Virus record (IMG/VR): IMGVR_UViG_3300027804_000049
Coordinates: 1 to 64,000 of that record
Strand: one strand, 5' to 3'
Length of the DNA stretch: 64,000 nucleotides
Source: a virus
The position numbers were made by a program, and so were the translations under genes. The notes beneath the pieces were generated by a model. The model was given only the letters and a program-made list of their open reading frames with translations. It ran no database searches and was not told where the DNA came from. Below, in pieces: positions 13,274 through 33,585 of this stretch. Numbering within the stretch: the stretch's first letter is position 1; each line of letters begins with the position of its first letter.

Positions 13274-14344
13274 ATGAAAGTTGCCGCCTATTGCGTTGCC
13301 CTTAATGAGGAAAAACATGTCGAAAGGTGGGTTGAAACCACCGCGGGTGCAGATTATCGCCTAGTGTGTGATACAGGATCTACAGACGGCACGGTTGAAA
13401 AGTTACGCTCATTAGGCGTAACCGTATTTGAGATTCGAGTTAGACCTTGGCGTTTTGACGTTGCACGTAACGCGGCGCTTGCACTTTTGCCAGACGATGT
13501 CGTTGTATGTCACGTAATTGATATGGACGAGGCAGTTGACGTAGATTTTTATGACAAGGTACGTGAAAACTGGCAGGAGGGCGCAAATAAAGGTTGGCAC
13601 GAGTTTGATACAGGTCACGTGTGGATGGGAGCCCGTTTACACGCACGACACGGAATTTACTGGCGTTGGCCAGTTCACGAGGCATTTGTTCCATCACTAA
13701 ATACACCGTTGCGCAGCGTAACAATTCCATCAAAGATGTATCACAAGCCGGATAATACAAAATCGCGCAGTCAGTATCTATCAATGTTAATTAACGCAAG
13801 TAAGGAATTTCCAAAGGATCACCGCATCTGGGTGTACCTCTGTCGCGAGTACACGTTTAATAGGATGTGGGAACTTGTAATTCAAGCTGCAGAGCAGGTA
13901 ATAAAGTATAGTGATGATTGGTTTGTTGAGAGAGCTGCAGTGTGTCGTTGGGCAAGCGAGGCTAATCGCATGCTTGGTAACATTGAGGAGGCGCATCGTT
14001 GGGCCGATAAGGCAGTTGAGATTGATCCCTGCGGTGAAAATTACTTTGAAAAAGTTAGATGTTACTACGCGCAATCAGACTGGAGTAACATGTGGGAAAC
14101 TTGTAAGAAGGTTGCTGCATGCGATCCAACAAAACACTATCTATCAAGTGAGGCATTGTGGAAATGGCAACTTGATGATATGCGTGCACTTTCCGCGCAC
14201 TATCTTGGTGATAAGAGAAAAGCTGTTAAGTATGGACAAAGTGCGTATGATAATAACCCTAGTGATACGCGACTTAAAAATAACATTGACTGGTATAACA
14301 AGGGTATTGAAGAGCAGATAAAGGCTAATAACCCGAGTGAGTAA
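13274..14344 (+). CDS. GT2-family glycosyltransferase with C-terminal TPR-like helices
   Basis: NEE, DTGSTDGT, FDVARN, DMDE (DxD), VHE motifs; helical repeats ending ..RLKNN. Confidence 0.85.
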   Translation: MKVAAYCVALNEEKHVERWVETTAGADYRLVCDTGSTDGTVEKLRSLGVTVFEIRVRPWRFDVARNAALALLPDDVVVCHVIDMDEAVDVDFYDKVRENWQEGANKGWHEFDTGHVWMGARLHARHGIYWRWPVHEAFVPSLNTPLRSVTIPSKMYHKPDNTKSRSQYLSMLINASKEFPKDHRIWVYLCREYTFNRMWELVIQAAEQVIKYSDDWFVERAAVCRWASEANRMLGNIEEAHRWADKAVEIDPCGENYFEKVRCYYAQSDWSNMWETCKKVAACDPTKHYLSSEALWKWQLDDMRALSAHYLGDKRKAVKYGQSAYDNNPSDTRLKNNIDWYNKGIEEQIKANNPSE

Positions 14345-15242
14345 TATCTTTATTGCCATATTGGCAAAGCAAAAGGAAGGAGTTTTGCCTTTATTCTTGC
14401 GCTCGCTTTATGAGCTTGACTACCCTAAGGAAAACATATCACTATACGTAAGAACAAATAACAACACGGATAACACGAAGGAAATCTTAGAAAGTTGGCT
14501 AGCTAAACACCGAGCAGAATATCGCTACGTATCCTATGATAGCAGTGATATTGCAGACGCAGTTCAAGAATACAAGGTTCATGAGTGGAACGGCGTACGT
14601 TTTCGCGCACTTGCTAAGATACGTCAGGCAAGTATAGATGCGTGTCTACAAAGTGATTGTGATTACTACTTTGTAATTGACGTTGATAACTTTTTATTTC
14701 CTGAAACGCTAAAGGATCTTATAGAGGCTAACAAACCTATAGTCGCGCCACTGCTACGTTACGCGGTTGCAAATGACGAGTTTCCAGATACACCTGAGGA
14801 CCAGGAGCGTGTGGGAAGTCACAAGTGTCGCTACTACTCGAATTACCACCACATGGTAGACGACTATGGCTCAATATTAAATGAGCCAGTGTATTATCAA
14901 CTTCTTTACCGCGTTCAAGGATATAAGGGAATTTGGGATGTTGATTGCGTGCATTGCACATATCTTATACAACGTAAATACTTAGACAAGCTTACGTATC
15001 TCGAGGATTCTGATCGCTATGAGTACATGGTATTTTCAGAGTCAGCGCGTAAGGCTAAAATTAACCAGTATCTCGATAATCGCAAGATCTACGGAATACT
15101 TACACTCACTGAAAATGCTAAAGTCTGCGAGTGGTTATTTGATAATCTAAAGGATATGGAGACGCGCGACGAGCGCTATCAACAACATAATCCACAGGAT
15201 GTCTTTTACACGCCTTCTAATGCAGTTATACTAGCTGACTAA
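14337..15242 (+). CDS. GT-A glycosyltransferase resembling the COLGALT (GT25) N-terminal / PLOD accessory domain
   Basis: IAILA..LDYPK..I..NTDNT.EIL..W..RF..KIRQA..DY.F.IDVDNFL..TL..LI..NK.IVAPLL..YSN..VHCTYLI mirrors the remembered COLGALT sequence. Confidence 0.75.
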   Translation: MSNIFIAILAKQKEGVLPLFLRSLYELDYPKENISLYVRTNNNTDNTKEILESWLAKHRAEYRYVSYDSSDIADAVQEYKVHEWNGVRFRALAKIRQASIDACLQSDCDYYFVIDVDNFLFPETLKDLIEANKPIVAPLLRYAVANDEFPDTPEDQERVGSHKCRYYSNYHHMVDDYGSILNEPVYYQLLYRVQGYKGIWDVDCVHCTYLIQRKYLDKLTYLEDSDRYEYMVFSESARKAKINQYLDNRKIYGILTLTENAKVCEWLFDNLKDMETRDERYQQHNPQDVFYTPSNAVILAD

Positions 15243-16211
15243 GCTAACTGAATTACCTGTCTTAGAACTTTTTAATATAGCCTCGCAAACCTTAAGAACC
15301 TCTATCCCCGACTCAACGGTTGCAACGTTGCTTGACTTACCGAGTACAAAGTCTCTAAATTCCTCATGCTCCAGTACGAGTGGCTCCTTCTTGTCAAGCT
15401 TGTAATATGTAATATTTCCATCTACAACTCCGCGAAATGTGTCAGAGTCATAAAGATCGTTTGGATAAAAGGCAAGTTTAACATTTAATGTATCCGCGAT
15501 TAGACAACCTTTTTCACCAAGAATGCGTGTTTCACGAATCTTGTTCGGGCTTAGCCAGTCAATTATGTGATTTGTTACAACGCCACCTTGCATCATCGCG
15601 GTGATGGAAACGATGTCCTCGTGTTCCTTACCCGAGTGACTTCCTGTGAATGCGGCAACCTTTTCATATTTGCGTTGCGTGATCCACGCGGTTAAATCAA
15701 TATCATGCGTTGCAAGATCCTTAACTACACCGACGTCCGCAATACGCGTTGGGTGCCAGCCTTGTCTTCTTGTAAACACCTCGTAGATATTTCCAAGTAG
15801 TCCCTGCTCGATAAGTTGACGTGCCTTTACGAGCGCGGGGTTATATCTTTCAATTTGCCCTACTGCTCCAACCAGGTGCGAATTTATCAACGCGGATTGA
15901 ATATTGATGGCCGAGGACACGTTGTGCGCAACAGGCTTTTCAACAAGTACGTGAGCTCCCATGTCAATTATCTCAAGGGCAACGTCCTCATGATAGATCG
16001 TAGGAACAGCAATAACGCAGTAGTCGATATTTTTTGGTATAAATTCAGGTATAGACTCAAGCAGTATCTCCGCCTTGACCGCCTTTGTAGGGTCTCCACC
16101 AGGGTCGTAAGACGCAACGAGTTGAACTCCAGGTAAGTTATTAAGGACGCGTGCGTGGTTACGTCCCATAACTCCAAGCCCAATAAGACCCGCCTTTAAG
16201 GCAGCTGACAT
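15231..16211 (-). CDS. Gfo/Idh/MocA NAD-dependent sugar-nucleotide 3-dehydrogenase (WbpB/WlbA/GnnA-like)
   Basis: GLIGLGVMG, VEKP, ERYNP, DLATHDID. Confidence 0.85.
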   Translation of the reverse strand: MSAALKAGLIGLGVMGRNHARVLNNLPGVQLVASYDPGGDPTKAVKAEILLESIPEFIPKNIDYCVIAVPTIYHEDVALEIIDMGAHVLVEKPVAHNVSSAINIQSALINSHLVGAVGQIERYNPALVKARQLIEQGLLGNIYEVFTRRQGWHPTRIADVGVVKDLATHDIDLTAWITQRKYEKVAAFTGSHSGKEHEDIVSITAMMQGGVVTNHIIDWLSPNKIRETRILGEKGCLIADTLNVKLAFYPNDLYDSDTFRGVVDGNITYYKLDKKEPLVLEHEEFRDFVLGKSSNVATVESGIEVLKVCEAILKSSKTGNSVSLVS

Positions 16212-17302
16212 CAGCTTCCAGCCTTGGCAATTTCGTTTACCGCGATGATGATTCTATGAAGTTGCCCTGGTGCAAGTTTAGGATGAACTGGCAGTGAGAT
16301 AACCTCACGACACGCCTTCTCTGTTTCAGGTAGATCAAGACTTTTATTATATGAAGGAAGTCGGTGTATTGGAGTTGGGTAATACACACCTGAGCCAATG
16401 TTTCGTTTCTCGAGCTCAGATATAAACTTATCTCTATCATGACCAACTACACGAATTGTGTATTGATGATACACGTGCTTATAGCCTTTGGGTGCGGTTG
16501 GCACTACAACTCCGTTTATATTTTCATTTAAGAATTTTCCATTTTCAATTCTATAGTTGTTGTACTTGTCAATTTTTTGTAGTTGAACTCGACCAATTGC
16601 CGCATGAACGTCAGTCATGCGATTATTTAATCCGACTACCTCATTTTGATAGCGTTTTTCCATCCCTTGGTTGCGTAGCATACGTGATAGTCTTTCAATA
16701 TTCTTGTCATATGTGACTATCATTCCACCCTCACCGCTTGTCATATTTTTAGTAGGATAAAATGAAAATGCGGCTCCATCTGCAAACGTCCCAACGTATG
16801 TTCCATCTATCATCGCGCCATGCGCCTGGGCAGCGTCCTCAAGTAAAAGAAGATCATGCTTCTTAGCAATTGCAACTAGTTGAGGCATGTTTGCAGGCAT
16901 GCCGTAAAGATGAACTGCCATGATTGCACGAGTTTTCTTTGTAATTAAAGACTCAACGTGTTTTGGGTCAATACAAAATGTATGAGGATCAATGTCAGCA
17001 AATACCGCCTTGGCTCCTGTAAGCTCAACCGCGTTTGCAGTTGCGGCAAATGAGAATGATGGAACTATGACCTCGTCACCGTGGCCAATCTTGTGCGCAA
17101 GAAGAAGAATGTGAAGAGCTGATGTTCCAGAGTTTACTGCAATTGACATTAAGTTAGAAACTAGTTTTTGTGAAAATTCATTTTCAAAGGAAAGTACCTC
17201 GCCTCCTTGCGCAAGGTTACCTGATTTCATAACCCGCTTAACTGCACGAATTTCCTTTCTTCCAATGTCTGGACTTGCTACGTTTATCATTTTCTTAGAC
17301 AT
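16211..17302 (-). CDS. DegT/DnrJ/EryC1/StrS PLP aminotransferase (WbpE/WlbC/GnnB-like)
   Basis: NSGTSALH, VHLYG, EDAAQAHG, FSFYPTKNMTSGEGG. Confidence 0.92.
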   Translation of the reverse strand: MSKKMINVASPDIGRKEIRAVKRVMKSGNLAQGGEVLSFENEFSQKLVSNLMSIAVNSGTSALHILLLAHKIGHGDEVIVPSFSFAATANAVELTGAKAVFADIDPHTFCIDPKHVESLITKKTRAIMAVHLYGMPANMPQLVAIAKKHDLLLLEDAAQAHGAMIDGTYVGTFADGAAFSFYPTKNMTSGEGGMIVTYDKNIERLSRMLRNQGMEKRYQNEVVGLNNRMTDVHAAIGRVQLQKIDKYNNYRIENGKFLNENINGVVVPTAPKGYKHVYHQYTIRVVGHDRDKFISELEKRNIGSGVYYPTPIHRLPSYNKSLDLPETEKACREVISLPVHPKLAPGQLHRIIIAVNEIAKAGS

Positions 17303-17810
17303 ATATCGGCTTTCCTTTGTAGTCTACCTGCCCAACGACGCGCGCTGGAATTCCCATAACTAAAGCAAATGGCGCAACATCCTTTGTTACAACTGCACCT
17401 GCAGCAACGACTGCCCATCTTCCAATTTTAACTGGTGCCACACAAATTGCTCCTGCTCCAATTGAAGCCCCTTCTTCTATTTCAACTCCAACCGCATTCC
17501 AATCATCTGTGTTTTTTTGCGTCTTGTCTTCGTTAATTGCTCGCGGATAGTGATCATTAGTGAGAATAACTCCAGGACCAATAAACACACCTTCATGTAT
17601 TTTTGCTGGCTCATAAATCATTGCGCCATTTTGTATCTTTGAGTTATCACCAATCTCAACTCCGGATCCAATATATGCGCCCTTTCCGACTATAACATTT
17701 TTTCCAATACGCGCGCTATCTCGTACTTGAGCATGGTGCCATATCTTTGCACCTTGATCAATAAATGCGGTATCGTGAATCTCGGCAGTTGATTCAATGT
17801 GAATTGTCAT
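17295..17810 (-). CDS. Hexapeptide-repeat N-acetyltransferase (WbpD/WlbB-like)
   Basis: KIWH, hexapeptide repeats, TNDHYPRA, GAVVTKDV..GIPAR. Confidence 0.88.
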   Translation of the reverse strand: MTIHIESTAEIHDTAFIDQGAKIWHHAQVRDSARIGKNVIVGKGAYIGSGVEIGDNSKIQNGAMIYEPAKIHEGVFIGPGVILTNDHYPRAINEDKTQKNTDDWNAVGVEIEEGASIGAGAICVAPVKIGRWAVVAAGAVVTKDVAPFALVMGIPARVVGQVDYKGKPIYV

Positions 17811-19320: not shown

Positions 19321-19354
19321 AGTCGTCCTTTGTCATTAGGGGTTTATTATATCA
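19321..19354 (-). promoter_or_regulatory. Extended -10 promoter (TGATATAAT) plus TAATGACAAAGGA leader/SD
   Basis: Similar arrangement at 33586-33620 and 28709-28744. Confidence 0.55.
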
Positions 19355-19627
19355 GGAACCTTGGTCGTAGTCCTCCTGATTTCCTGGGTCCTCGTACTCA
19401 TCAATTTGATCAATTGGCACATATATGCCTACTACCGTCACACGTCCGCAGGCGGTACATTCGCTAACAGCGCCTGGAGATAGTTGAATTGGAACGTTTA
19501 CACTTATTAGCCGCGTGATGATGTTTCCTCTTTCATCAACGCTATCTGCTTCCCAAACTGAGTTTTCGTCAATCCAACAACGCTCACATATTGGGACAAG
19601 TTCCTCCTCGCCACCGCGAATTGTCAT
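19352..19627 (-). CDS. Small CxxC..CxxC putative zinc-binding protein
   Basis: CERC, CTAC; ATGA overlap with the MTase gene. Confidence 0.6.
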   Translation of the reverse strand: MTIRGGEEELVPICERCWIDENSVWEADSVDERGNIITRLISVNVPIQLSPGAVSECTACGRVTVVGIYVPIDQIDEYEDPGNQEDYDQGS

Positions 19628-20862
19628 GTGTACATCTTCTTTGCAGCTTGACGTGAAAAGCCGCGATCTGCATCAACTAAAAATTCTCTATCACCAATTT
19701 TTTGTGCATCACCTTGTTGTGGATTTCCCTCTAGTGATTCCTTAATTGCCTTTGCAATCCACGAGGCTGCTTGCACTGGAACTGCCTTTCCCCATGTTGC
19801 CGCGAGCGCAGAGTAATCCTTTGATCCTTCAATGTCCCAGTCATCAGGAAGTCCTTGCATGCGTGCGCACTCTCTATGAGTTATAAGTCTTGGTTGCGTT
19901 GGGTGAATGACATGCTCTAACGCAGAGCCAGTTAACACGTTACACCAGTGATCTTCCTTCCATCGATAAGGTTGACTAAAGCCTAACTTAAACTCTCTAC
20001 GCTTAACGCGTGGAGCAACATCAGTCCACGTTTGAGGAAATGTATTATCGTTCATTTCCACTGCAAGTTTTATAGCACTTCCAAGATCTCCGTTTCCTGG
20101 CCAGTTTTTGTTTCCTATTATGTCGAATACATCTTTTATTCTTTGAACGTGTATGTTGTTTTTTCCAATGTGCCCGTCTACCTTTTGACTTTTAGATCTA
20201 AGATGTTTAACATGCTTTGATGGCGCAGGCTCAGTGTAAGGCTGCTTATTCCAACTTTGTGGCATTTCTGCGAGGTCGCCAATGATATCCATAATCCTTG
20301 GAAGCTCTTTAGTCTTTGGCATTACAACGTCAAACTTAAGTCCTTTTCTTACCGCAACCCAAAAGTATCTTGGACGATAAGAAAATCCGCCAAGTTGTAG
20401 GTTATTATGTTTAACATGGTAAAGATCGTACTTTTTACCAGAAACTTCCTCGACCATATCGCGATATTTAAGCATTACATCTCTACCTTGAGTATAAGCT
20501 TGTTGAACACACTCAAAGACGACTGCTTGAGGTTTTACACGTCCTGCGTATTTCATAAATGCTCGCGTGTGTTCGTGCACCTTTGCATCAATTCCTCTGT
20601 TACTCGGTCCTGACCATACCGACCATCCTGAGCACGGTGGACAGCCAAGAACTATATCTGTCTTCTTTGTTTCCCACTCGCCTGCATCATCTGAGAAGTT
20701 TGCTACCCAATTGTTTCCCATATGAGTTCTGTTGTTTTCAACCACCTGGTTTCCAAAGTTTAGCGTCCCTGTGCGATGAATCATTTCCATTCCATTTTGC
20801 ACAAAACCAAGACTCATAAAGCCAGCAAGACCGTTGCAGTCAACAAACGTCATTTGCGACAT
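19624..20862 (-). CDS. Atypical C5-cytosine DNA methyltransferase-fold enzyme
   Basis: GCPPCSGWS (IV), FECV (VI), YRPRYF (VIII), RECARMQGLPDDW (IX), GKAVP (X); motif I degenerate. Confidence 0.85.
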   Translation of the reverse strand: MSQMTFVDCNGLAGFMSLGFVQNGMEMIHRTGTLNFGNQVVENNRTHMGNNWVANFSDDAGEWETKKTDIVLGCPPCSGWSVWSGPSNRGIDAKVHEHTRAFMKYAGRVKPQAVVFECVQQAYTQGRDVMLKYRDMVEEVSGKKYDLYHVKHNNLQLGGFSYRPRYFWVAVRKGLKFDVVMPKTKELPRIMDIIGDLAEMPQSWNKQPYTEPAPSKHVKHLRSKSQKVDGHIGKNNIHVQRIKDVFDIIGNKNWPGNGDLGSAIKLAVEMNDNTFPQTWTDVAPRVKRREFKLGFSQPYRWKEDHWCNVLTGSALEHVIHPTQPRLITHRECARMQGLPDDWDIEGSKDYSALAATWGKAVPVQAASWIAKAIKESLEGNPQQGDAQKIGDREFLVDADRGFSRQAAKKMYT

Positions 20863-21444: not shown

Positions 21445-21860
21445 TGAATTCGTTTCTGCAGTTGATAAGGAGCGTAGTGAGCGCCGTCAAGAATTGGTTC
21501 CTTGTCATCAGTTGACTTAAACACAATATCTCCGTAGCGCACAGCGACAACACGTCCTCTTCTTCCATTGTGAATAACTCCTGTGCTACCGTCATAGGCA
21601 TCAGCCTTTACACGAACCTCATCACCTACGTTAATTGATCCTGGTTGCGCATCAATCCATTTTTCAGTTGGTGGCTCAGGGATAATTGAGTGTGTAAGCG
21701 CCAGTTGTGGAAACAACGCAATAGCTTCCTTTACTTGTGGACCAGAAAGATCAAGCGTTTCCCACGTCTTTAGCAGCTTTAAGATGGCATTCCCAACACC
21801 AACCTTTACACGTGCACCTTGCATTTGCTGGCGCACCCAGTCATAATTTACCTCAGGCAT
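21441..21860 (-). CDS. Hypothetical protein with SH3/KOW-like C-terminus
   Basis: INVGDEVRV..GRVVAVRYGDI; GGAGG SD. Confidence 0.6.
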   Translation of the reverse strand: MPEVNYDWVRQQMQGARVKVGVGNAILKLLKTWETLDLSGPQVKEAIALFPQLALTHSIIPEPPTEKWIDAQPGSINVGDEVRVKADAYDGSTGVIHNGRRGRVVAVRYGDIVFKSTDDKEPILDGAHYAPYQLQKRIQ

Positions 21861-22338
21861 TTCCGTCTACCTCCTTTGGAAGACATTTTGCACACATATC
21901 TGGTGATGCGCCTCGACCAACGTCGTCAATTGCACGGGCGCAGAGCGCACATTTGACGCCAATCTCTTTAACCTTGTATCCATCTAGTTGTCTTTGTTTG
22001 TTTCGTTCCATCTTTTCAATGTAAAACTTATCAAGCATCTCATCTGTTCCACCAGCTGCAACAATAATATTTGCGACAAAGTGTAAAACGTCAACCGCCT
22101 CCTTGACAATTTCCTCGCGATCTGCATATGGCTTATCGTGTTGCCAAGGCTTCCATGATATTGCCTGACGCATCTCTGCAAGTTCATCGTCAATGGCAAG
22201 CATATTCCAACGCATGTACTCAATGAGACGACGAATATTTGCGTCTTTGTCGCCTGACATGTCATCAAAGTTTATGTAATAAACGTCTGTTTGTAGATCC
22301 TTTGTGCGTTTAATCCAGTTGTTAAACAATATTCCCAT
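21853..22338 (-). CDS. All-alpha dimeric dUTPase/dCTPase (T4 gp56-like) with C-terminal CxxC..CxxC
   Basis: ELAE, WKPW, EAVDVLHF, K..RN..RQ..GY. Confidence 0.8.
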   Translation of the reverse strand: MGILFNNWIKRTKDLQTDVYYINFDDMSGDKDANIRRLIEYMRWNMLAIDDELAEMRQAISWKPWQHDKPYADREEIVKEAVDVLHFVANIIVAAGGTDEMLDKFYIEKMERNKQRQLDGYKVKEIGVKCALCARAIDDVGRGASPDMCAKCLPKEVDGNA

Positions 22339-22343
22339 GACTA

Positions 22344-23369
22344 CTATTTTCCTTTCGTTGCGTATAGGTTTAATGCGTCAGATACAGTCACCGCAGCATC
22401 TCTACGAGACGGAATTGACTTAGCATATTCTTCTCTTTGTGCGTGAGCGACTTCCACGCGTTTGTCAATGGGAAGAGTTTCAATGTGAGATGCAAGATAT
22501 GTCCATGAATCTCCAATGGCTTGACTCTCTCGCCAATCTGTAGCTACGGGAGTAGAGGCGTTAAGCGACTGTATTAGTCGATATGACCACCAAGTACCTC
22601 CTGTTTGATACGGACTAATTAAGGAGCCAATGCCAGAGCTTATTTGTGAGAATACCTGCTCGTCGTTCCAACCTTTATGCCACTTCATTGGAATTGACTG
22701 ATGCACAAGCATTCCAGTTACTTCTTTTATCCAACTCGTGTTGTAGTTTTCAACTACCCATTTATCACGTTTTTCGACTTCAATTGAGTCCTGTGTAGAT
22801 AATATGTATGAGTCCAGGTTTATTGCAAACAGTGACTCAGCCGCACCTGCAGGCAATTGAGAAATTACCTTGCCTGTTCCAGACCAGGGAAGCGCTGGAT
22901 ACAATGTAGTTGGCCACTCATCATTAAGAAGTCGATTTACAACCGCAAGTAAGTTTGATGCCATACCTGGAACTGTTGCATACATAAAACCTTTACGGTA
23001 GGAATAAAAAGGCTTTGTTAAGTTATCTGGAGTTTTTGCTATTGCACGTAAGCTTGCAGTAATGCGTGTTGGCTCTGGCGCATCAATGAAAAAGCGTAGT
23101 TTAGACGACTCTTGTAGAAGATCTATTAAGTTAAGTGCACCGTATACGCGGTTTGCGCTTAAACTTGTTAGTGGGCTAAGTCCAATAAGCACAAGATCGT
23201 ATTGATCAAGGTCATTTATGTTCCATGAAATATCAGGATCATCTTGAACTACCTCGTGCCCCATCTGAGAAAGAACATTACAAATAAGTCCAGCAAAAGA
23301 TAGTGAGCGCTTATTAGCCTCGGCTGATGCATGAGGCGCACTCATTCCTGTAATAAGTATCTTACTCAT
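22344..23369 (-). CDS. GT-B-like transferase paralogue (divergent)
   Basis: ILITG, GHEV, YDLVLI, GAL, GTWWSYR parallel the neighbouring gene. Confidence 0.6.
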   Translation of the reverse strand: MSKILITGMSAPHASAEANKRSLSFAGLICNVLSQMGHEVVQDDPDISWNINDLDQYDLVLIGLSPLTSLSANRVYGALNLIDLLQESSKLRFFIDAPEPTRITASLRAIAKTPDNLTKPFYSYRKGFMYATVPGMASNLLAVVNRLLNDEWPTTLYPALPWSGTGKVISQLPAGAAESLFAINLDSYILSTQDSIEVEKRDKWVVENYNTSWIKEVTGMLVHQSIPMKWHKGWNDEQVFSQISSGIGSLISPYQTGGTWWSYRLIQSLNASTPVATDWRESQAIGDSWTYLASHIETLPIDKRVEVAHAQREEYAKSIPSRRDAAVTVSDALNLYATKGK

Positions 23370-24586
23370 GCAAGTGTACCATCAGCATTTCTTTTTAGTC
23401 CTTTGTCCTCTTGTAGTGCGCGATTTATGATGCGACTGCAGTGTTCTACGAACGACGAGTATTGAGGAACAAACGGAGTAAACGCATCGCGTTGCGCCTG
23501 AGCTGCCTCAATAAGTTGAGCATCACTCATCTTTTCAACGTCTGCAATTTTAAGTTTATACGCGTCACCTAATGGATCGCCTTCACCTTTGTCAGTTACA
23601 AGAATTGATCCTACGTGCGCGGTGTAAAGAAAACGACTGCGCCACCAGCCAGACCCAGCGTGCGGATATGGTGGAGAAAGAATTCCCCAATGTTGATTGT
23701 AAAACTCCAACACGTCCTTCTCTGTATCAAACCTTTGTCCGCCAAGCTTTTTAATAAGCTTACGACTTCCAACAATCTCAACTGGCCATGTCAGGTTTTT
23801 CTTTTCAAGCCAAGTATCATGCGGCATTAACGCACCTAAAACCCATGCGCGTTTCTTAAGTGACTGATTTAGCGGAACTACAGGACTCAGCGTAGGGACT
23901 ATTGTCGATGTTGGGTCTAATGCCTCAATTGGACCAAGTTCCTTTGGCATACGCTTACGCACAATAGATCTGTCGCCAAATGAGTACATAGGACAAACTG
24001 GAACCATACCAGCAGACCAACGCTCAATTAAAAGATCCTCGGCAGCTTGAACAAGTCTTTTCTCCCAGGGTTTAATTGTTTCATCGTTATCCATCATGTA
24101 ATAACGTTCAATGTAACACTTCTTTGCCGCATCTGGACTTACTGCACGCACTCTTTCAAGTGCAGCCTCAATGTCTGCGCGACTAAAATACGTTGCGCCT
24201 TCGTCACCGCGATGTTCAGTTCCAACAAGCAGGTGTTTATACAACATCTCAGGTTTACGAACTAGCGCCTTTGCTCCGTTAAACACAGTGTTAAACTGCC
24301 AATCATCAAAAAATCCAACACAAGGTAGTCCAGATGACAGCGTGTAAAGTGCACCCATTGCGCCTTGTCTACCATTAAGCGAGTTTAATGGTGCAAGATT
24401 GACCCAGGCAACATCATACGAAGACAGGTCCTCGCCAGGAGTTACCTTACGCCAATCAACTTCATGACCTAACTCACGCAACGCCTGTGCAATAGCTGCA
24501 GGCACGTCGATTTTTTGTATCGTCCTTTTTTCAGTGTTTATCTGCAGTGCAGTAAACCCTGTCATTAAGACAGATAACTTTTTCAT
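23366..24586 (-). CDS. GT-B-like putative DNA base glycosyltransferase
   Basis: LGHEVDWR.VT.GEDLS.YD, FFDDWQ, PY.HAGSGWWR.R..GSIL; from memory resembles the RB69-type DNA arabinosyltransferase candidates. Confidence 0.65.
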   Translation of the reverse strand: MKKLSVLMTGFTALQINTEKRTIQKIDVPAAIAQALRELGHEVDWRKVTPGEDLSSYDVAWVNLAPLNSLNGRQGAMGALYTLSSGLPCVGFFDDWQFNTVFNGAKALVRKPEMLYKHLLVGTEHRGDEGATYFSRADIEAALERVRAVSPDAAKKCYIERYYMMDNDETIKPWEKRLVQAAEDLLIERWSAGMVPVCPMYSFGDRSIVRKRMPKELGPIEALDPTSTIVPTLSPVVPLNQSLKKRAWVLGALMPHDTWLEKKNLTWPVEIVGSRKLIKKLGGQRFDTEKDVLEFYNQHWGILSPPYPHAGSGWWRSRFLYTAHVGSILVTDKGEGDPLGDAYKLKIADVEKMSDAQLIEAAQAQRDAFTPFVPQYSSFVEHCSRIINRALQEDKGLKRNADGTLA

Positions 24587-24601: not shown

Positions 24602-24663
24602 CTAAGTGTGTTTAGCGCGTCACCTACGCATAATATACATAGGTGACGACTAAACGCACTTAG
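24602..24663 (-). other. Long intergenic hairpin (~30-bp imperfect stem)
   Basis: CTAAGTGTGTTTAG..CGTCACCTA / TAGGTGACG..CTAAACGCACTTAG. Confidence 0.8.
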
Positions 24664-25199
24664 AACGGAGAGGCAGGTGCCGCCGCTACTGGTGCAGGTG
24701 CAGGTTCAGCTGCTACAGGTGCAGGTGCTGCAGCTGGTGCAGGTGCAGGTGCAGGAGCAGGAGCTGCTGCTGCAGCAGATGCTGCTGCTACAGGTGCAGC
24801 TGCGTAGTACATCTTGATTTCGTTTTTCTTGTTACCTTGCCAGGTACGTGAACCTACCTGTGCACGGAACGAGCGTCCCTTTAATGCTGCTTCGATTTGA
24901 GCATTTGAAGGATTAGATGCAAAGAACTCGCGGCCAAGACCGAGAGCTCCCATCTTGCGGAAGAACATTCCGAGAGCTGCAGAGTTATCTGGTGTAACTA
25001 CTAAGTTATCCCAAATTAGTCTCTTTGCGTGAGCGCCAGTTGTTACCTGTGCCTTAACTGCAAACATAGTCTTGCCTGATTGCGAGACCTTTGCTGTAGC
25101 CTCTACGATGGTTAAATCATAATCGCCATCGGGTAGAGGTTCATAACTTGCTGATTCACCTGCGTCTTTAACGAGGTCGCCCCAGTTGAGAGTACTCAC
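24660..25199 (-). CDS. Single-stranded DNA-binding protein (DUF669-like)
   Basis: PLPDGDY..S.SGK.M..IWDNL; Ala/Pro tail ending PF; follows the Sak4-like gene. Confidence 0.75.
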   Translation of the reverse strand: MSTLNWGDLVKDAGESASYEPLPDGDYDLTIVEATAKVSQSGKTMFAVKAQVTTGAHAKRLIWDNLVVTPDNSAALGMFFRKMGALGLGREFFASNPSNAQIEAALKGRSFRAQVGSRTWQGNKKNEIKMYYAAAPVAAASAAAAAPAPAPAPAPAAAPAPVAAEPAPAPVAAAPASPF

Positions 25200-29246: not shown

Positions 29247-31069
29247 CGATATTTTTCTCCCCAGTTTTCCATAGGTCCGTCAATTCCTGCAGTAAGAGGA
29301 ACATCCCAACCTTGTGTAGTTGTCATGCACTGTTGAACTATCTTTTTAATTTCCTCTGCGTCCTTGCGCGGTGCGTTAAGCACAATTTCATCGTGCACTG
29401 GAACGATAAGAAGTTCAGTTAAGTCAGCTTGATCTAACTTGACAAGGTTTGCCTTAAATACCTCGGCAGCGCCTCCTTGGATTAAATAATTCACCAAGGT
29501 GTAAACTCTATCCTCGTCACACGGCAGTCTTCTGCCTGTCCATGTATATACGTACCCTTGACCTTCTGCTTTTAAGCGACGCATTCCAGCATCTTCAATT
29601 TGACGTTGAAAGTGCGCCATTCCAGGAAACCTTGTATCAAAAGCGTCTGATACAGATCTCATCTGCCCTTCTTGTACTCTAGCTGTAATTGCTTGTTTTG
29701 CGACTCCAGCTCCGTAAAGACGACCGTATACCGTTCCTTTAATAAGGTTACGACGCTTATCTGAGCGTTGCATATTTGGATCGTTGTAGATTTCTTTACC
29801 AATTTCCGTAAACGGATCTGACCCGGTAGCATCAGCTCTATTGAATAGGTTGATGAGATTTGGATCTTGCGAAAGTGAGGCAAACATTCTGAACTCAACT
29901 TGGTCAAGGTCGCTGGTAACAATGACATGTTCATCGTCCTTTGGTATAAATGCCGTGCGAACAGTGTCATCACCCTTGGGCAATGTTTGCAAGGCTGGAT
30001 TTTGTATGCTCATACGACTTGTGCGAGCACCAAGTGTTTTTACGGAAGGGTGAACTACTCCGTTTACGTTATCGCTTAAGAAGTTTGAAAAATAAGTATT
30101 TGCAAGCTTGTCTGCCTTACGCTGTTTTAACACAATTTCGGCAAGATTTTTTACGTCATCGTTTCCGTTAATGGTAAGTAGATTTAATTGATCCTTTGTT
30201 GCAGATTTTTGTCCTGTAGGTGTAAATTCTGTAATTTCCGCGCCTAGTTTCTCAAAAAGACGCACCAGTTGAATGTTACTTGATATAGAAGTGCCATTGT
30301 AGGCCTGCTTAGCCCAATCTTTTACTGATTGGCTATAGTCATTTAGCTCTTGATACTTTCTCTTAGAGTACTCAAGGTCTACGCGCGCTCCATTTATCTC
30401 CATACGTGTAACAATCTTGCGCGCAGCCATTTCAAGCTCGTAAGCGCGGTTATATGGACCTGTAGGACCGCACTTTTCGTAGAACATCTCCCATAGACGC
30501 ATTGTAAGTACCGTATCAAGTGCACCATACGCCCAGTAAGGTTCAAAGTTTACTGGAACTGTTCCCCACGTCCAACCGTTTTCAATAAGCTTAACGTCTA
30601 AGGTATCTTGCAACGCAACTGCACGTCCGTCAACATATAATGCGGCAAGTTGCTTTAATGCACCAGATCCTAAAGGATCAATTATATGTGCCATAATCAT
30701 AGTGTCGTGTGACCTATGCCATGGAATGTCCCAACGAGATTGAACTGCAAACCAGCGAGCCTCAAACGCAATGTTGTGACAAACTAACTGGCCATCAAAC
30801 TTATCCATTGCCTCATAAAATACACCTGCCCACTCCTGCCACGGAATTGCCCAACCTTGCTGTCCATCTCCAACTTGAACAAGGCGTAGTTGGCCATGCC
30901 AGGGAGACAACGCGTCTTTTCTTTCTCCACCAGGCTTTTCACCAGTTTCAGTGTCAACTGCAATTGCGTTGTGTGGGCGTCTTTCACCGAGCCAACGTAT
31001 AAAAGCCTCTGCCTTTTCTACGTTGTCTACGAGGTGAAGTTTAACGTCACCTAGTCCACTATCTGTCAT
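29243..31069 (-). CDS. polA: Family A DNA polymerase (3'-5' exonuclease + polymerase)
   Basis: DTET, HNIAFE, YGALD; DLDQVEFR (A), KGTVYGRLYG (B), VHDE (C). Confidence 0.93.
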   Translation of the reverse strand: MTDSGLGDVKLHLVDNVEKAEAFIRWLGERRPHNAIAVDTETGEKPGGERKDALSPWHGQLRLVQVGDGQQGWAIPWQEWAGVFYEAMDKFDGQLVCHNIAFEARWFAVQSRWDIPWHRSHDTMIMAHIIDPLGSGALKQLAALYVDGRAVALQDTLDVKLIENGWTWGTVPVNFEPYWAYGALDTVLTMRLWEMFYEKCGPTGPYNRAYELEMAARKIVTRMEINGARVDLEYSKRKYQELNDYSQSVKDWAKQAYNGTSISSNIQLVRLFEKLGAEITEFTPTGQKSATKDQLNLLTINGNDDVKNLAEIVLKQRKADKLANTYFSNFLSDNVNGVVHPSVKTLGARTSRMSIQNPALQTLPKGDDTVRTAFIPKDDEHVIVTSDLDQVEFRMFASLSQDPNLINLFNRADATGSDPFTEIGKEIYNDPNMQRSDKRRNLIKGTVYGRLYGAGVAKQAITARVQEGQMRSVSDAFDTRFPGMAHFQRQIEDAGMRRLKAEGQGYVYTWTGRRLPCDEDRVYTLVNYLIQGGAAEVFKANLVKLDQADLTELLIVPVHDEIVLNAPRKDAEEIKKIVQQCMTTTQGWDVPLTAGIDGPMENWGEKYR

Positions 31070-31559
31070 TTACATCCTTTGTTATTGTTACTTCTATATT
31101 ACACTGTAAAAAGTACTCTACGGTCTCATCAGGAAGACGATGAGATGCGCGAGTGCCAATTCTCATAACAACACGACGTATTCCAGCGTTTGATATTAGC
31201 TTTGCACACTGATAACATGCTGCATCAGTTATGTATATGGTTCCACCTTCAACCCGTGAGCGGTCTACGTATAAAAGCGCATTTGCCTCCGCATGTATTG
31301 ATGGGCAAGAGTCATACGTATTTGTCAAAGGAACTACTCCTTGCGCGCGTGGGCACCATTCAATGCAGTCACCTTCAACCGAAAGAGTTGACGCAGGGCC
31401 GTTGTATCCTGTTGCACTTACGCGTTGGTCCTTTGAGATAACAACTGCGCCTATTTGCGCACGACTACAGCGTGAACGTTTGGCAATTGAGTCTGCCACC
31501 GACATCCACGTTTCGTCCCAGGAGGGTCTAGTCAGATGATTCAGGTGGTCCTCCAACAA
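31059..31559 (-). CDS. dCMP deaminase
   Basis: RPSWDE..RS.C.R..GAV, TGYNG, HAEANA, CYQC. Confidence 0.88.
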   Translation of the reverse strand: MLEDHLNHLTRPSWDETWMSVADSIAKRSRCSRAQIGAVVISKDQRVSATGYNGPASTLSVEGDCIEWCPRAQGVVPLTNTYDSCPSIHAEANALLYVDRSRVEGGTIYITDAACYQCAKLISNAGIRRVVMRIGTRASHRLPDETVEYFLQCNIEVTITKDVNDR

Positions 31560-31728
31560 TCATGCTGTTAAAAAGCTTGCTAACTAAAAACATAGCTTCT
31601 TTACGAGTAAACCCAGCCGCCTGTAATTGAGTATACATCTCATGAAGTTGAACCATGGCAGCCTTCATTGGGCTTTCATACATGTCTTCAATTTCACGTT
31701 TTAATTTTTTCATTTTCTCTTCATCCAT
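31528..31728 (-). CDS. Hypothetical small protein
   Basis: LHEMY..L..AGFT..EA; operon packing. Confidence 0.55.
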   Translation of the reverse strand: MDEEKMKKLKREIEDMYESPMKAAMVQLHEMYTQLQAAGFTRKEAMFLVSKLFNSMIVGGPPESSD

Positions 31729-32587
31729 TTAATTTTTCCTTATTCTTCTCAATGGCGCGTATCATTGCACTAGCGTACCATCCTTCAAACGGGTGAAGTC
31801 TATAACGTAACATTGTCTCGTCTCTATGCTGAGCAGCGGTTAGCGCACTTAAGGCGTATGATGAAACTTGTTGCCAAGTTAATCCAGTGATGGCTGGAAC
31901 ATCCTCGTATTTGTCTGCGTACTTTAACTTATCAGCCATATCATAGTGTTGCTCGTAGATATGAAGAGATCCAACATGGTGCGTGTAGTTGCCAGGCTCA
32001 ATACCTAAGACAGATGCAATTGCAAGTTGAACACGTGTAAATTGAAAGAAGTCATACGCAGCTCCAAGCCACACGTCGTTCGAGCGCATGAACACAGTCA
32101 TATTTAACTTATTGTCACGTATTCTAAATTGGTGAAGTATCGTGCAAGGGTAATCACGTTTCTTTGGAAGTAGATCAAGCTCAGGATTCCATATCGTAAC
32201 AACTGCCTGTCTTGTGTCTGGATCCTGCCTTAGTCTTTCAATAATCTTTTCATATTGCCCTTGAGTTCTAAGACCATATGCGCCATGGAATAGTCCGTTG
32301 TCCTCAGCGTAGTTCTTAAATTGTGGACCAACTGCAATGACAAGTTTTGGCGTTGATATTCCAGCGAGAAGTTGACATGCCTCAACCGCACCAATACCTG
32401 GAACAGTTCCGCGTCCTACACCTAATGGTAGGGTGTTCTTTACATCATCAATACGAATTACCGCGTCCTCGATCTCACGGGTCTTCATTCCGCGCGGAGC
32501 GGTTTCTCGACCGTGCTCTAAGACGTGTTTAACAAGATCAACGTACCCGTTAACTCCGTCTGGTATGTTTATTATCGCAGTATCCAC
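31721..32587 (-). CDS. Thymidylate synthase homologue, dCMP-specific type (T4 gp42-like dCMP hydroxymethylase/modifier)
   Basis: PRG, AYG, DTRQA, DYPCT, MRSNDVWLGAAYD (Asp at the dUMP-selecting Asn site), SLHIY. Confidence 0.82.
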   Translation of the reverse strand: MDTAIINIPDGVNGYVDLVKHVLEHGRETAPRGMKTREIEDAVIRIDDVKNTLPLGVGRGTVPGIGAVEACQLLAGISTPKLVIAVGPQFKNYAEDNGLFHGAYGLRTQGQYEKIIERLRQDPDTRQAVVTIWNPELDLLPKKRDYPCTILHQFRIRDNKLNMTVFMRSNDVWLGAAYDFFQFTRVQLAIASVLGIEPGNYTHHVGSLHIYEQHYDMADKLKYADKYEDVPAITGLTWQQVSSYALSALTAAQHRDETMLRYRLHPFEGWYASAMIRAIEKNKEKLNG

Positions 32588-33585
32588 TGGCTCTCCCTGT
32601 TATATCGTAGTGATTGCTTAAATATCTCGTGCCCGTAATCTAGCTTGCGCGCGTTAGAGAAACGTCGTACATATTGCGGATGAGGAAGAACAACGTATTG
32701 GTGTTCCTTAAATCCATGAGCCTTTAGTCCTTTTTCTGCTAGGGTCCCAAGCGCAATTATTCTTGGTCTTTTTAATACCTGCCACAACTCGTCAACCTGT
32801 GTAACGTGCTCATCATTTACATTTATAATTCCTACAGTCTTCCAAGAGTTGCCTGGAAGAGATGATAACAAGAAATCACCAGAGTTTCCATCAACAGGCA
32901 TAAAGGGTAATATTGTCTCCTTGCCATAAGCTTCCTTTATATTTTGTCTATCTCCAACGAGTAGTACCTGCGCGTCATAACGTCCAATATACCAAGGAAA
33001 TTGTTTAAGACTATCTGCCTTAGTTGCCGCGTAGTGTGAATTACTTATTATTCTTTCCGCGAGCATGGGAATATCCTGTAGAGATTCGCTTGATGGGTTT
33101 AACATCTCGAACTCTGTGGCAACCTCGTCTGCCGCAAGTCGATATTGACCAAGGATCTTGTAAAGCTCATCGACAGTTACGTAATCGTCACCGCGAGATG
33201 AAAGACGACGTTGAATCACGTCTAAAGGTTGATAAAGCCAAAATTGATGAACACCGCGAGAGGCAAGAAAGAGTTCAACCCAACGCCAACCTGCAACGCC
33301 AAGTAAACCATAGCCGTCAGAGTCTGACTCAGGACGTTTTAATGGCGCATATGTGATTTCGCCCCAGTGCCAGCGATCTGCAACCGCAAGTCGTTTTGTC
33401 CAGTCAATATCCTGTATTGAGTTTACGTAATCATTTAATACCCAACGACGAGTCATCATATCTGGCTTTGATTTATGAAAAAATTCTACGTTATTGTTAG
33501 GAAACATTGACTTTAGTTGATGCTCGATCTCGGACACAAGAGTAGACTTACCAGAGGCGTCTGTACCTTCAACTACTATAAACAT
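32572..33585 (-). CDS. Nucleotide monophosphate kinase fused to a UDG-superfamily domain
   Basis: EGTDASGKST, DRWHWGE..Y; C-terminal VLLVGD, PF..NSG..L, IIALG..A, PHPQY. Confidence 0.75.
   Translation of the reverse strand: MFIVVEGTDASGKSTLVSEIEHQLKSMFPNNNVEFFHKSKPDMMTRRWVLNDYVNSIQDIDWTKRLAVADRWHWGEITYAPLKRPESDSDGYGLLGVAGWRWVELFLASRGVHQFWLYQPLDVIQRRLSSRGDDYVTVDELYKILGQYRLAADEVATEFEMLNPSSESLQDIPMLAERIISNSHYAATKADSLKQFPWYIGRYDAQVLLVGDRQNIKEAYGKETILPFMPVDGNSGDFLLSSLPGNSWKTVGIINVNDEHVTQVDELWQVLKRPRIIALGTLAEKGLKAHGFKEHQYVVLPHPQYVRRFSNARKLDYGHEIFKQSLRYNRESQWILR

Follow-up and report, generated by a model that had tools for sequence, protein, structure and literature searches.

A phage family of cytosine-C5 methyltransferase relatives with a motif X lysine, found alongside predicted hydroxymethylcytosine pathways

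DNA cytosine-C5 methyltransferases (C5-MTases) that lack their cofactor S-adenosylmethionine (SAM) reportedly add formaldehyde to cytosine, remove it from 5-hydroxymethylcytosine (5hmC) and couple 5hmC to thiols (Liutkeviciute et al. 2009, 2011). These cofactor-free side reactions are slow and promiscuous in vitro, and to our knowledge the hydroxymethyl chemistry of C5-MTases is known only from the laboratory in this form; likewise, we know of the exchange of the motif X asparagine for lysine only as an engineered change. Here, we describe a 412-aa protein with the C5-MTase fold and a natural motif X lysine, encoded in the first 64 kb (hereafter the window) of the 114.6-kb IMG/VR record IMGVR_UViG_3300027804_000049, whose completeness is estimated at 89%. 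The protein belongs to a phage family, which we term Lys-type, that keeps the residues of covalent cytosine activation, departs from canonical enzymes on the cofactor side and occurs in genomes that carry a predicted 5hmC pathway. Judged from these sequence features, the family may carry out covalent, probably SAM-independent chemistry on a hydroxymethyl-level C5 group of DNA cytosine or 5hmC, a reading to which we assign a probability of about 50%. With comparable confidence, we propose that the family is derived from DNA C5-MTases and serves as an accessory part of a phage pathway for 5hmC replacement and decoration.

Among described phage enzymes, the relevant natural comparison is CmoX, which uses carboxy-SAM to make 5-carboxymethylcytosine (5cxmC). 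In SpCmoX of Synechococcus phage S-B43 (PDB 8YF3), the motif X Asn is replaced by Arg350 (Yang et al., Nat Commun 2025, PMC12783734); the enzyme needs phage or host CmoA, its gene usually sits with those for CmoA and an amide ligase, and natural CmoX keeps the SAM adenosine contacts F25, E47, F48 and D69 (PMC12783734). A basic motif X residue determines carboxy-SAM use both in SpCmoX (R350; PMC12783734) and in the engineered variants M.MpeI N374K and M.MedI N377K (PMC12015181). The motif II Glu of M.MpeI is described as crucial for carboxy-SAM binding, and the engineered Asn-to-Lys C5-MTases still methylate with SAM (PMC12015181). Given the Arg350 of natural CmoX, a basic residue in place of the motif X Asn is a genuine lead.

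The gene content of the source record (WhiB, PolA, SNF2 helicase, PD-(D/E)XK nuclease and AAA_24 protein) suggests an actinophage. Among deposited phages, DSL-LC01 of freshwater Actinomycetia is closest to it, and the DSL-LC01 homologue shares 62.6% identity with the 412-aa protein; homologues in the Gordonia phages Sixama, GMA2, Forza, Phendrix and GodonK are ~35% identical, and that of Micrococcus phage Kurnik 32%. The open reading frame (ORF) matched PF00145 with an E value of 1.5e-24 and 87.5 bits (cut-off 22), and an AlphaFold2 (AF2) model built from a 42-sequence alignment reached a pLDDT of 93.8 and a pTM of 0.92. Foldseek returned the catalytic domains of DNMT1 and MET1, 3G7U, HaeIII and HhaI as the best structural matches of this model, with a probability of 1.00 for DNMT1, HaeIII and HhaI. 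Public records label the proteins of the family simply as "methyltransferase".

Direct translation bore out the motif readings of a preliminary description made from the DNA letters. The cytosine-activating residues are kept (GCPPC, FECV and RPRYF), so that the catalytic set typical of PF00145 (motif IV Cys, motif VI Glu and RxR) is complete, and motif X reads GKAVP with its Lys codon exactly as described, giving Gly-Lys where SAM-dependent C5-MTases have Gly-Asn. Motif I was likewise as first read: in place of the SAM-binding FxGxG loop the protein has N-G-L-A-G, and alignment with E. coli Dcm sets DLFAGIGG over DCNGLAGF, with changes of F to N, of the first G to L and of the last G to F; the HaeIII alignment agrees with this assignment. 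The motif II Glu of both Dcm and HaeIII aligned to Gly32.

The correspondence between Lys359 and the motif X Asn, on which the preliminary description depended, was recovered in all four independent alignments. These were a phmmer alignment with M.HaeIII (GKAVPV over GNAVPV), the family profile aligned to HaeIII and MET1, a 90-aa fragment aligned to MET1, and a MAFFT alignment with E. coli Dcm in which the query and four phage homologues all have K in the N436 column. From these motifs, we infer that the SAM pocket of the 412-aa protein is eroded, and its cofactor side appears to be partly filled by hydrophobic residues.

To place the protein in its family, we looked for homologues: 262 were recovered at E<=1e-10, and searching exhaustively through 1.84 billion representatives gave 136 clusters at E<=1e-30, a number that rose to 258 at E<=1e-10. 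Conservation was counted in 124 aligned representatives with mutual identity below 50%. The motif X position was Lys in 118 and Arg in three, and Asn occurred in none. The catalytic machinery was nearly invariant (catalytic Cys, 121; Glu117 of motif VI, 123; Arg163, 121; Arg165, all 124), and the Asn of ENV was replaced by Ser in 116. Motif I follows the consensus D-C/V-Q-G-F/L-A-G-G/A, in which the canonical Phe position is Q, H, N, E or Y and the first Gly is F, L or Y, with Gly14 invariant across most of the family. The residue at the adenine-stacking position varies (N, Q, H, M, L, E or Y), as does that at the motif III Asp position, and residues 375-412 form a family-specific C-terminal extension.

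The cofactor side is not uniform across the family. The main clade conserves a GGFG loop and keeps the motif II Glu, which is present in 81 of the 124 representatives, whereas the clade formed by the window and all cultured phages lacks this residue and reads RTG[TS]LN. The earlier statement that the acidic motif II residue is missing thus stands for this protein and its cultured-phage homologues, but not for the family at large. In distribution, the family looks virus-only in what was searched: its nearest ESM-Atlas clusters are 98-100% viral, and scanning the genomes of 185,579 prokaryotic species with a sequence pattern gave, among the matches listed, only canonical C5-MTases (22-30% identity).

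An indication of biological context comes from the thymidylate synthase (TS) homologue of the window. In published criteria for dCMP hydroxymethylases (N177D and L143D/E, with D169 retained), D177 specifies cytosine instead of uracil and D143 a hydroxymethyl instead of a methyl product (PMC13326640, PMC8670742). At the positions of E. coli ThyA, the window homologue has D143, D169 and D177, keeps C146 and has T at position 147, and its best PDB match is the CMP hydroxymethylase MilA. The combination D143/D169/D177 recurs in all 32 other aligned TS homologues except one, which has N143. We also considered 5-hydroxy-dCMP (5hodCMP) synthase as the identity of the window homologue and rejected it, because D169 is retained (criterion in PMC13326640).

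The genes around the TS homologue and the 412-aa ORF extend this pathway. The TS homologue adjoins genes for a dCMP deaminase, a P-loop NMP-kinase-like protein of 337 aa and PolA; the kinase-like protein gave weak dTMP kinase matches and, when tested as a 5-hydroxymethyl-dU (5-hmdU) DNA kinase (HMUDK), proved not to be HMUDK-like. A few genes upstream of the 412-aa ORF lie a MazG-like NTPase and two GT-B paralogues. The 341-aa GT-B protein matched SenB and T4 beta-glucosyltransferase (BGT) in Foldseek (1qkj, TM 0.58; 1nzd, 0.56; E about 1e-6), and its 406-aa paralogue clusters with a DSL-LC01 protein annotated "glycosyltransferase". Together, these genes resemble the T4 kit for glycosyl-5hmC. 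A TET/JBP dioxygenase, which would indicate a route from 5-methylcytosine (5mC) to 5hmC, was looked for and none was found. Based on these genes, the phages that carry the family are predicted to replace cytosine with 5hmC; a literature search returned no paper on the DNA of the cultured relatives.

Across relatives, the family and the hydroxymethylase-type TS occur together. A TS homologue with D143/D169/D177/T147 is present in the window and in 5/5 large relatives of its clade, and the signature was found in 14 of 17 main-clade records, including all six with a completeness of at least 90%. At four loci (L097, L134, L136 and L105), no more than a few genes separate the family gene from those for the TS, the kinase and the deaminase. 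Five complete 5hmC-type records (G003, G005, G009, G010 and G017) carry the TS signature and yielded no family member, which indicates that the family depends on the pathway and not the pathway on the family. This confinement to phages predicted to make 5hmC argues that the family probably performs non-methyl chemistry on cytosine or 5hmC.

Gene order is conserved as well. At most loci, one or more transferases, the MazG-like NTPase and the family gene follow one another, and this module is maintained in phages of 56-136 kb whose Lys-type proteins are only 30-36% identical. The MazG-like NTPase, identified in relatives by its annotation or by membership of the same BLAST cluster, lies directly upstream of the family gene or one small ORF away in Sixama, Phendrix, Kurnik, L128, L132, L137, L138, L140 and L141, and three to five ORFs away in the window, DSL-LC01 and L129. 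The Lys-type enzyme and the MazG-like NTPase are the constant core of these loci, around which the partners vary by clade and comprise glycosyl, methyl, phosphoryl and perhaps aminoacyl transferases. In DSL-LC01, a separate small class I methyltransferase is encoded directly upstream of the family gene. Neighbours in L133, L138 and L141 gave weak, sub-threshold matches to the amino-acid:DNA transferase (ADDT) and 5-hmdU DNA kinase families; those of L133 and L138 are leads only, below the Pfam cut-offs (ADDT, 22.6 bits; HMUDK, 17.9 bits).

Domain analysis of the 150 best representatives revealed that such partners have also been fused, in independent events, to the Lys-type enzyme itself. An FkbM-type methyltransferase domain is present in six (P0162, P0166, P0172, P0266, P0147 and P0265), a UbiG-like Methyltransf_23 domain in three (P0167, P0189 and P0213), the helical domain of a 5-hmdU DNA kinase in one (P0239) and a winged-helix domain in one (P0142). 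The fused forms retain PPC, the Glu and RxR, and all but P0266 also retain the Lys. With the exception of the winged helix of P0142, all partners belong to enzyme types that target hydroxyl groups, and none of the fused methyltransferase domains is CmoA-like. The kinase fusion of P0239 had no relative in viral contigs. A function as a post-replicative 5hmC-to-5hmU deaminase that feeds the fused kinase was rejected as genetically untenable, since it would create mispairs.

The locus was also compared directly with CmoX systems. CmoA (TIGR00740) was found in 0/23 records, comprising the genome of the window, five relatives from its clade (the deposited phages DSL-LC01, Sixama, Kurnik and Phendrix and a complete 129.5-kb IMG/VR relative) and 17 main-clade records; the CmoA-free records include seven listed as 100% complete (G001, G022 and G027-G031), and E. 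coli CmoA scored above the cut-off in control genomes. The earlier remark that the window lacks CmoA therefore holds and extends to the whole 114.6-kb record. On the host side, the presumed hosts are Actinobacteria, and none of 201 sampled genomes of the Actinomycetes, the class of Corynebacterium, passed the CmoA cut-off of 193 bits (best, 163); G041, one of the genomes sampled, gave a weak match, and no conclusion here depends on it. No Pfam match to a CmoY-type AMP-forming amide ligase occurred among the ORFs between 8.4 and 34.1 kb. Within the protein, N10, G32 and V53 stand against the CmoX adenosine contacts F25, E47, F48 and D69, and the CmoX-defining SPPC reads CPPC here and NPPC in the family. 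The family profile matched HaeIII (E 1.5e-25) better than 8YF3 (E 7.5e-13).

Collectively, intact covalent-catalysis residues, an altered cofactor side, a 5hmC context and hydroxyl-directed partners suggest that the family handles a -CH2-OH or -CH2-O-X group through a bond between Cys and C6. In the proposed mechanism, cytosine would be flipped out of the helix and attacked at C6 by means of the kept Cys of PPC, the motif VI Glu and the motif VIII RxR, with Cys77 adding to C6 of the flipped cytosine or 5hmC. Lys359 would then engage the one-carbon group at C5, which bears an oxygen (-CH2-OH or -CH2-O-X), either as an acid/base or through a hydrogen bond. By analogy, the motif X residue would in each case contact an atom one bond past the carbon attached to C5, namely the carboxylate in CmoX and N374K and the hydroxyl oxygen in 5hmC.

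The role that we favour would be a cofactor-free, aldol-type hydroxymethylation of residual unmodified cytosines, a form of post-replicative patching whose product would be trapped by an adjacent or fused O-transferase (glycosyltransferase, O-methyltransferase or kinase). Such trapping would explain the fusions, and patching would pair naturally with the MazG-like NTPase, because both would exclude cytosine from phage DNA. Two variants appear nearly as likely: covalent activation of 5hmC, so that its hydroxyl could be replaced by another nucleophile, and site-specific removal of the hydroxymethyl group. The narrower proposal of a dedicated cofactor-free DNA cytosine hydroxymethyl enzyme, using aldol-type or substitution chemistry on cytosine or 5hmC in double-stranded DNA, is advanced tentatively and is clearly less probable than the general reading.

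Several considerations weigh against this interpretation. The motif II Glu of the main clade and the invariant Gly14 suggest that many members may bind an adenosine-type cofactor, and the engineered Asn-to-Lys methyltransferases, as noted above, retain SAM methylation (PMC12015181). A single syntenic replication module (PolA, SNF2 helicase, PD-(D/E)XK nuclease, AAA_24 and WhiB) is common to all carriers, and for this reason the co-occurrence could partly reflect shared ancestry rather than functional coupling. T4-type phages manage 5hmC DNA without such an enzyme, and transfer of a glycosyl, methyl or phosphoryl group to 5hmC needs no prior activation. Free formaldehyde is scarce in the cell, and without trapping of the product the aldol equilibrium would favour release of the hydroxymethyl group.

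The alternative that survives best, though we judge it improbable, is a conventional 5mC methyltransferase, SAM-dependent despite its unusual motifs, which would methylate phage or host DNA site-specifically and so evade restriction. The PF00145 score well over the cut-off and the public methyltransferase annotation are in keeping with such an enzyme, as are the SAM methylation by engineered Asn-to-Lys variants and the motif II Glu and Gly14 of the main clade. This explanation is hard to reconcile with the lack of Asn at motif X in any of the 124 representatives, with the family-wide replacement of the motif I Phe and first Gly, or with an unconserved motif III acid; the clade of the window has lost the motif II Glu in addition. 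Little substrate would be available to a 5mC methylase, as the family occurs solely in genomes predicted to replace cytosine with 5hmC. Moreover, in nine representative clusters the protein has another methyltransferase domain whose fold is intact, an odd arrangement if the first domain works with SAM.

Slightly less credible is an anti-host weapon that acts on unmodified host cytosine, by C-to-U deamination or by forming covalent adducts, to which the 5hmC DNA of the phage would be immune; here, Lys359 would donate a proton to C5 in place of the SAM methyl group. C5-MTases starved of SAM are known to deaminate cytosine, and 5hmC phages commonly attack cytosine-containing DNA selectively. The genomic setting offers a further point in favour, since an endonuclease V-like glycosylase/AP lyase (PF03013) is encoded two ORFs downstream of the family gene in the window and directly downstream in DSL-LC01, but this neighbour is absent from that position in Sixama, Phendrix and Kurnik. 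A weapon of this kind would also leave unexplained the fusions to O-methyltransferase and hydroxymethylpyrimidine-kinase domains and the constant place of the family beside decorating transferases.

About equally doubtful is the transfer to C5 of some other group, either from a nucleoside-type cofactor (the aminocarboxypropyl group of SAM or another SAM-derived donor) or from methylene-tetrahydrofolate as a one-carbon donor. The motif II Glu and conserved GGFG loop of the main clade suggest a ribose-containing ligand, and the Lys could pair with a carboxylate of the transferred group or of the cofactor. However, the variable adenine-stacking position resembles relaxed selection and not a retooled site, the motif II Glu is missing from the clade of the window, and no gene for synthesis of a special donor is conserved beside the family.

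The least probable explanation, a carboxy-SAM-dependent DNA cytosine C5-carboxymethyltransferase that would be a Lys-type analogue of CmoX and provide 5cxmC as a handle for further modification, draws on the alignment of Lys359, a basic residue as in CmoX, with the motif X Asn and is disfavoured by the lack of CmoA in the phage records and in the sampled host class, by the missing adenosine contacts and by a C5 position that, given the predicted replacement of cytosine, would be mostly occupied already by a hydroxymethyl group. Of the two functions that the preliminary description had offered, carboxymethylation is thus disfavoured, and its account of 5cxmC, which named engineered enzymes, has been outdated by the natural CmoX-made 5cxmC published in December 2025; the other, non-SAM chemistry or editing of 5hmC, fits the TS co-occurrence, the MazG-like and BGT-like neighbours and the fusions to hydroxyl-acting domains.

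The features of the window are compiled in Table 1.

Table 1. Coordinates of the Lys-type gene, its motifs and the other features of the window discussed in the text
Feature	Position	Strand	Basis or location
C5-MTase-fold enzyme, Lys-type family, 412 aa	19624-20862	minus	PF00145, AF2, Foldseek
Motif I, DCNGLAGF for DLFxGxGG	20818-20841	minus	translation and Dcm/HaeIII alignment
Motif II region, IHRTGTLNF; Gly32 at the ribose-binding Glu position	20755-20781	minus	translation, HaeIII/Dcm alignments
Motif IV, GCPPCSGWS; catalytic Cys77 (codon 20632-20634)	20620-20646	minus	translation
Motif VI, FECV; Glu117 kept, Cys replaces Asn of ENV	20506-20517	minus	translation
Motif VIII, RPRYF (Arg163, Arg165)	20362-20376	minus	translation
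Motif X, WGKAVPV; Lys359 (codon 19786-19788) for the conserved Asn	19774-19794	minus	translation, four alignments
TS homologue with dCMP-hydroxymethylase signature	31721-32587	minus	PF00303, E 5.6e-29
dCMP deaminase	31059-31559	minus	PF00383, E 7.5e-19
P-loop (d)NMP-kinase-like protein, 337 aa, candidate hydroxymethyl-dCMP kinase	32572-33585	minus	phrog_761 "thymidylate kinase", E 7e-13
MazG-like / dimeric dUTPase-type all-alpha NTP pyrophosphatase, candidate dCTPase	21853-22338	minus	PF08761, E 1.6e-11
GT-B glycosyltransferase, 341 aa	22344-23369	minus	AF2 (pLDDT 84.4), Foldseek
GT-B paralogue, 406 aa	23366-24586	minus	phmmer against the 341-aa protein, E 1e-10 to 1e-14
GT2-like transferase with TPR region	13274-14344		
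GT2-like transferase	14337-15242		
Gfo/Idh/MocA oxidoreductase	15231-16211		
DegT/DnrJ/EryC1 aminotransferase	16211-17302		
Hexapeptide acetyltransferase	17295-17810		
T4 endonuclease V-like pyrimidine-dimer glycosylase, PF03013	18793-19320		two ORFs downstream of the 412-aa ORF
91-aa ORF	19352-19627		between the glycosylase and the 412-aa ORF
DUF6378 protein, 100 aa	20940-21242		immediately upstream of the 412-aa ORF
DUF669 protein	24660-25199		between the transferases and the AAA_24 ATPase

Some further observations concern the surroundings of the gene. A sugar-nucleotide tailoring set (13274-17810) lies beside the 5hmC genes, and it raises the possibility that the sugar on the DNA or on the virion is an acetamido sugar. 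A sugar-nucleotidyltransferase (NTP_transferase, E 1e-12) is encoded directly upstream of the MazG-like and family genes of a main-clade phage, at L137:8479-9201, and again points to sugar decoration. PHROGs names DUF6378 families "phosphofructokinase", apparently a propagated misnomer, and the DUF669 protein of the window ends in a long Ala/Pro-rich C-terminal tail (…APAPAPAPAPAAAPAPVAAEPAPAPVAAAPASPF).

Others concern the borders of the family. A divergent sister group, found as L185 in G008, L187 in G011 and L105 in G012, has AHPPCAAFS and IESV and carries Arg at the Lys position (LSRGVCP); this Arg-type group also occurs in records with a D177-type TS, and at L105 homologous ORFs flank the kinase and TS genes. 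A weaker homologue in G015 (GNPPCGGLS; L186/L188), at G015:C1:22522-23616, consists of two matched stretches, one of which (23290-23616) is interrupted by an in-frame TGA; the gene could be broken, the stop could be recoded, or the TGA could be a sequencing error. The metagenomic member P0230, the only protein recovered in a search for longer homologues, is split by an intein that contains a LAGLIDADG homing-endonuclease domain and lies immediately ahead of the catalytic Cys in PPC.

The literature searched yielded papers on CmoX, TET-MT-GT, 5hoC and MetaGPA, but no description of the Lys-type family and nothing on 5hmC pathways in actinophages. As far as can be told, the elements new here are the catalogue of fusions, the variable hydroxyl-directed partners, the test for CmoA in the host class, the one-way dependence on the 5hmC pathway and the Arg-type sister group. 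The existence of more than 130 clusters (50% identity) with a fixed Lys, an altered SAM site and a 5hmC gene set as context suggests that phages have evolved such chemistry. If this proves true, the family would constitute a new enzyme class in DNA hypermodification pathways and a new post-replicative route to write, rewrite or erase 5hmC-level marks, one that dispenses with TET-type oxidation and nucleotide-pool replacement and is coupled to glycosyl, methyl or phosphoryl capping. It would also explain a conserved gene of Gordonia and Micrococcus phages and of abundant freshwater actinophages, and could provide a sequence-specific epigenomics tool for reading and rewriting 5hmC without SAM analogues. 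Cultured carriers exist (Sixama, GMA2, Phendrix, GodonK and Kurnik), which makes the question directly testable.

Compared with known systems, the Lys-type protein shares its fold, domain order, PPC, motif VI Glu, RxR and motif IX with canonical C5-MTases (M.HaeIII, M.HhaI, Dcm, CP-933R 3G7U and DNMT1/MET1), and its target-recognition region resembles that of DNMT1/MET1. The family differs from them in its motif X Lys, its ECV (here) or ESV (in the family), its remodelled motif I, its added C-terminal extension and its restriction to genomes with a dCMP-hydroxymethylase-type TS. Its basic motif X residue and its origin as a C5-MTase homologue in a phage are shared with SpCmoX, whose product is a non-methyl handle for further elaboration; SpCmoX, however, has Arg and not Lys, keeps all adenosine contacts, and usually has CmoA and an amide ligase adjacent. 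The engineered enzymes M.MpeI N374K and M.MedI N377K carry the same Asn-to-Lys change at the same position, but in an otherwise intact SAM site that needs the motif II Glu, whereas motifs I to III are remodelled in the Lys-type family.

The closest precedent for the chemistry itself is provided by the cofactor-free side reactions of C5-MTases reported by Liutkeviciute, Klimasauskas and colleagues (2009-2014): the reactions are the proposed ones, and here they would be an evolved main activity. At the level of the pathway, the glucosyl-5hmC system of T4 (gp42, gp56, gp1 and the alpha- and beta-glucosyltransferases) is matched in the window by the TS homologue, the all-alpha NTPase, the NMP-kinase-like protein, the dCMP deaminase and the BGT-like GT-B protein. 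T4 has no C5-MTase-like component, which in these actinophages is a conserved extra member.

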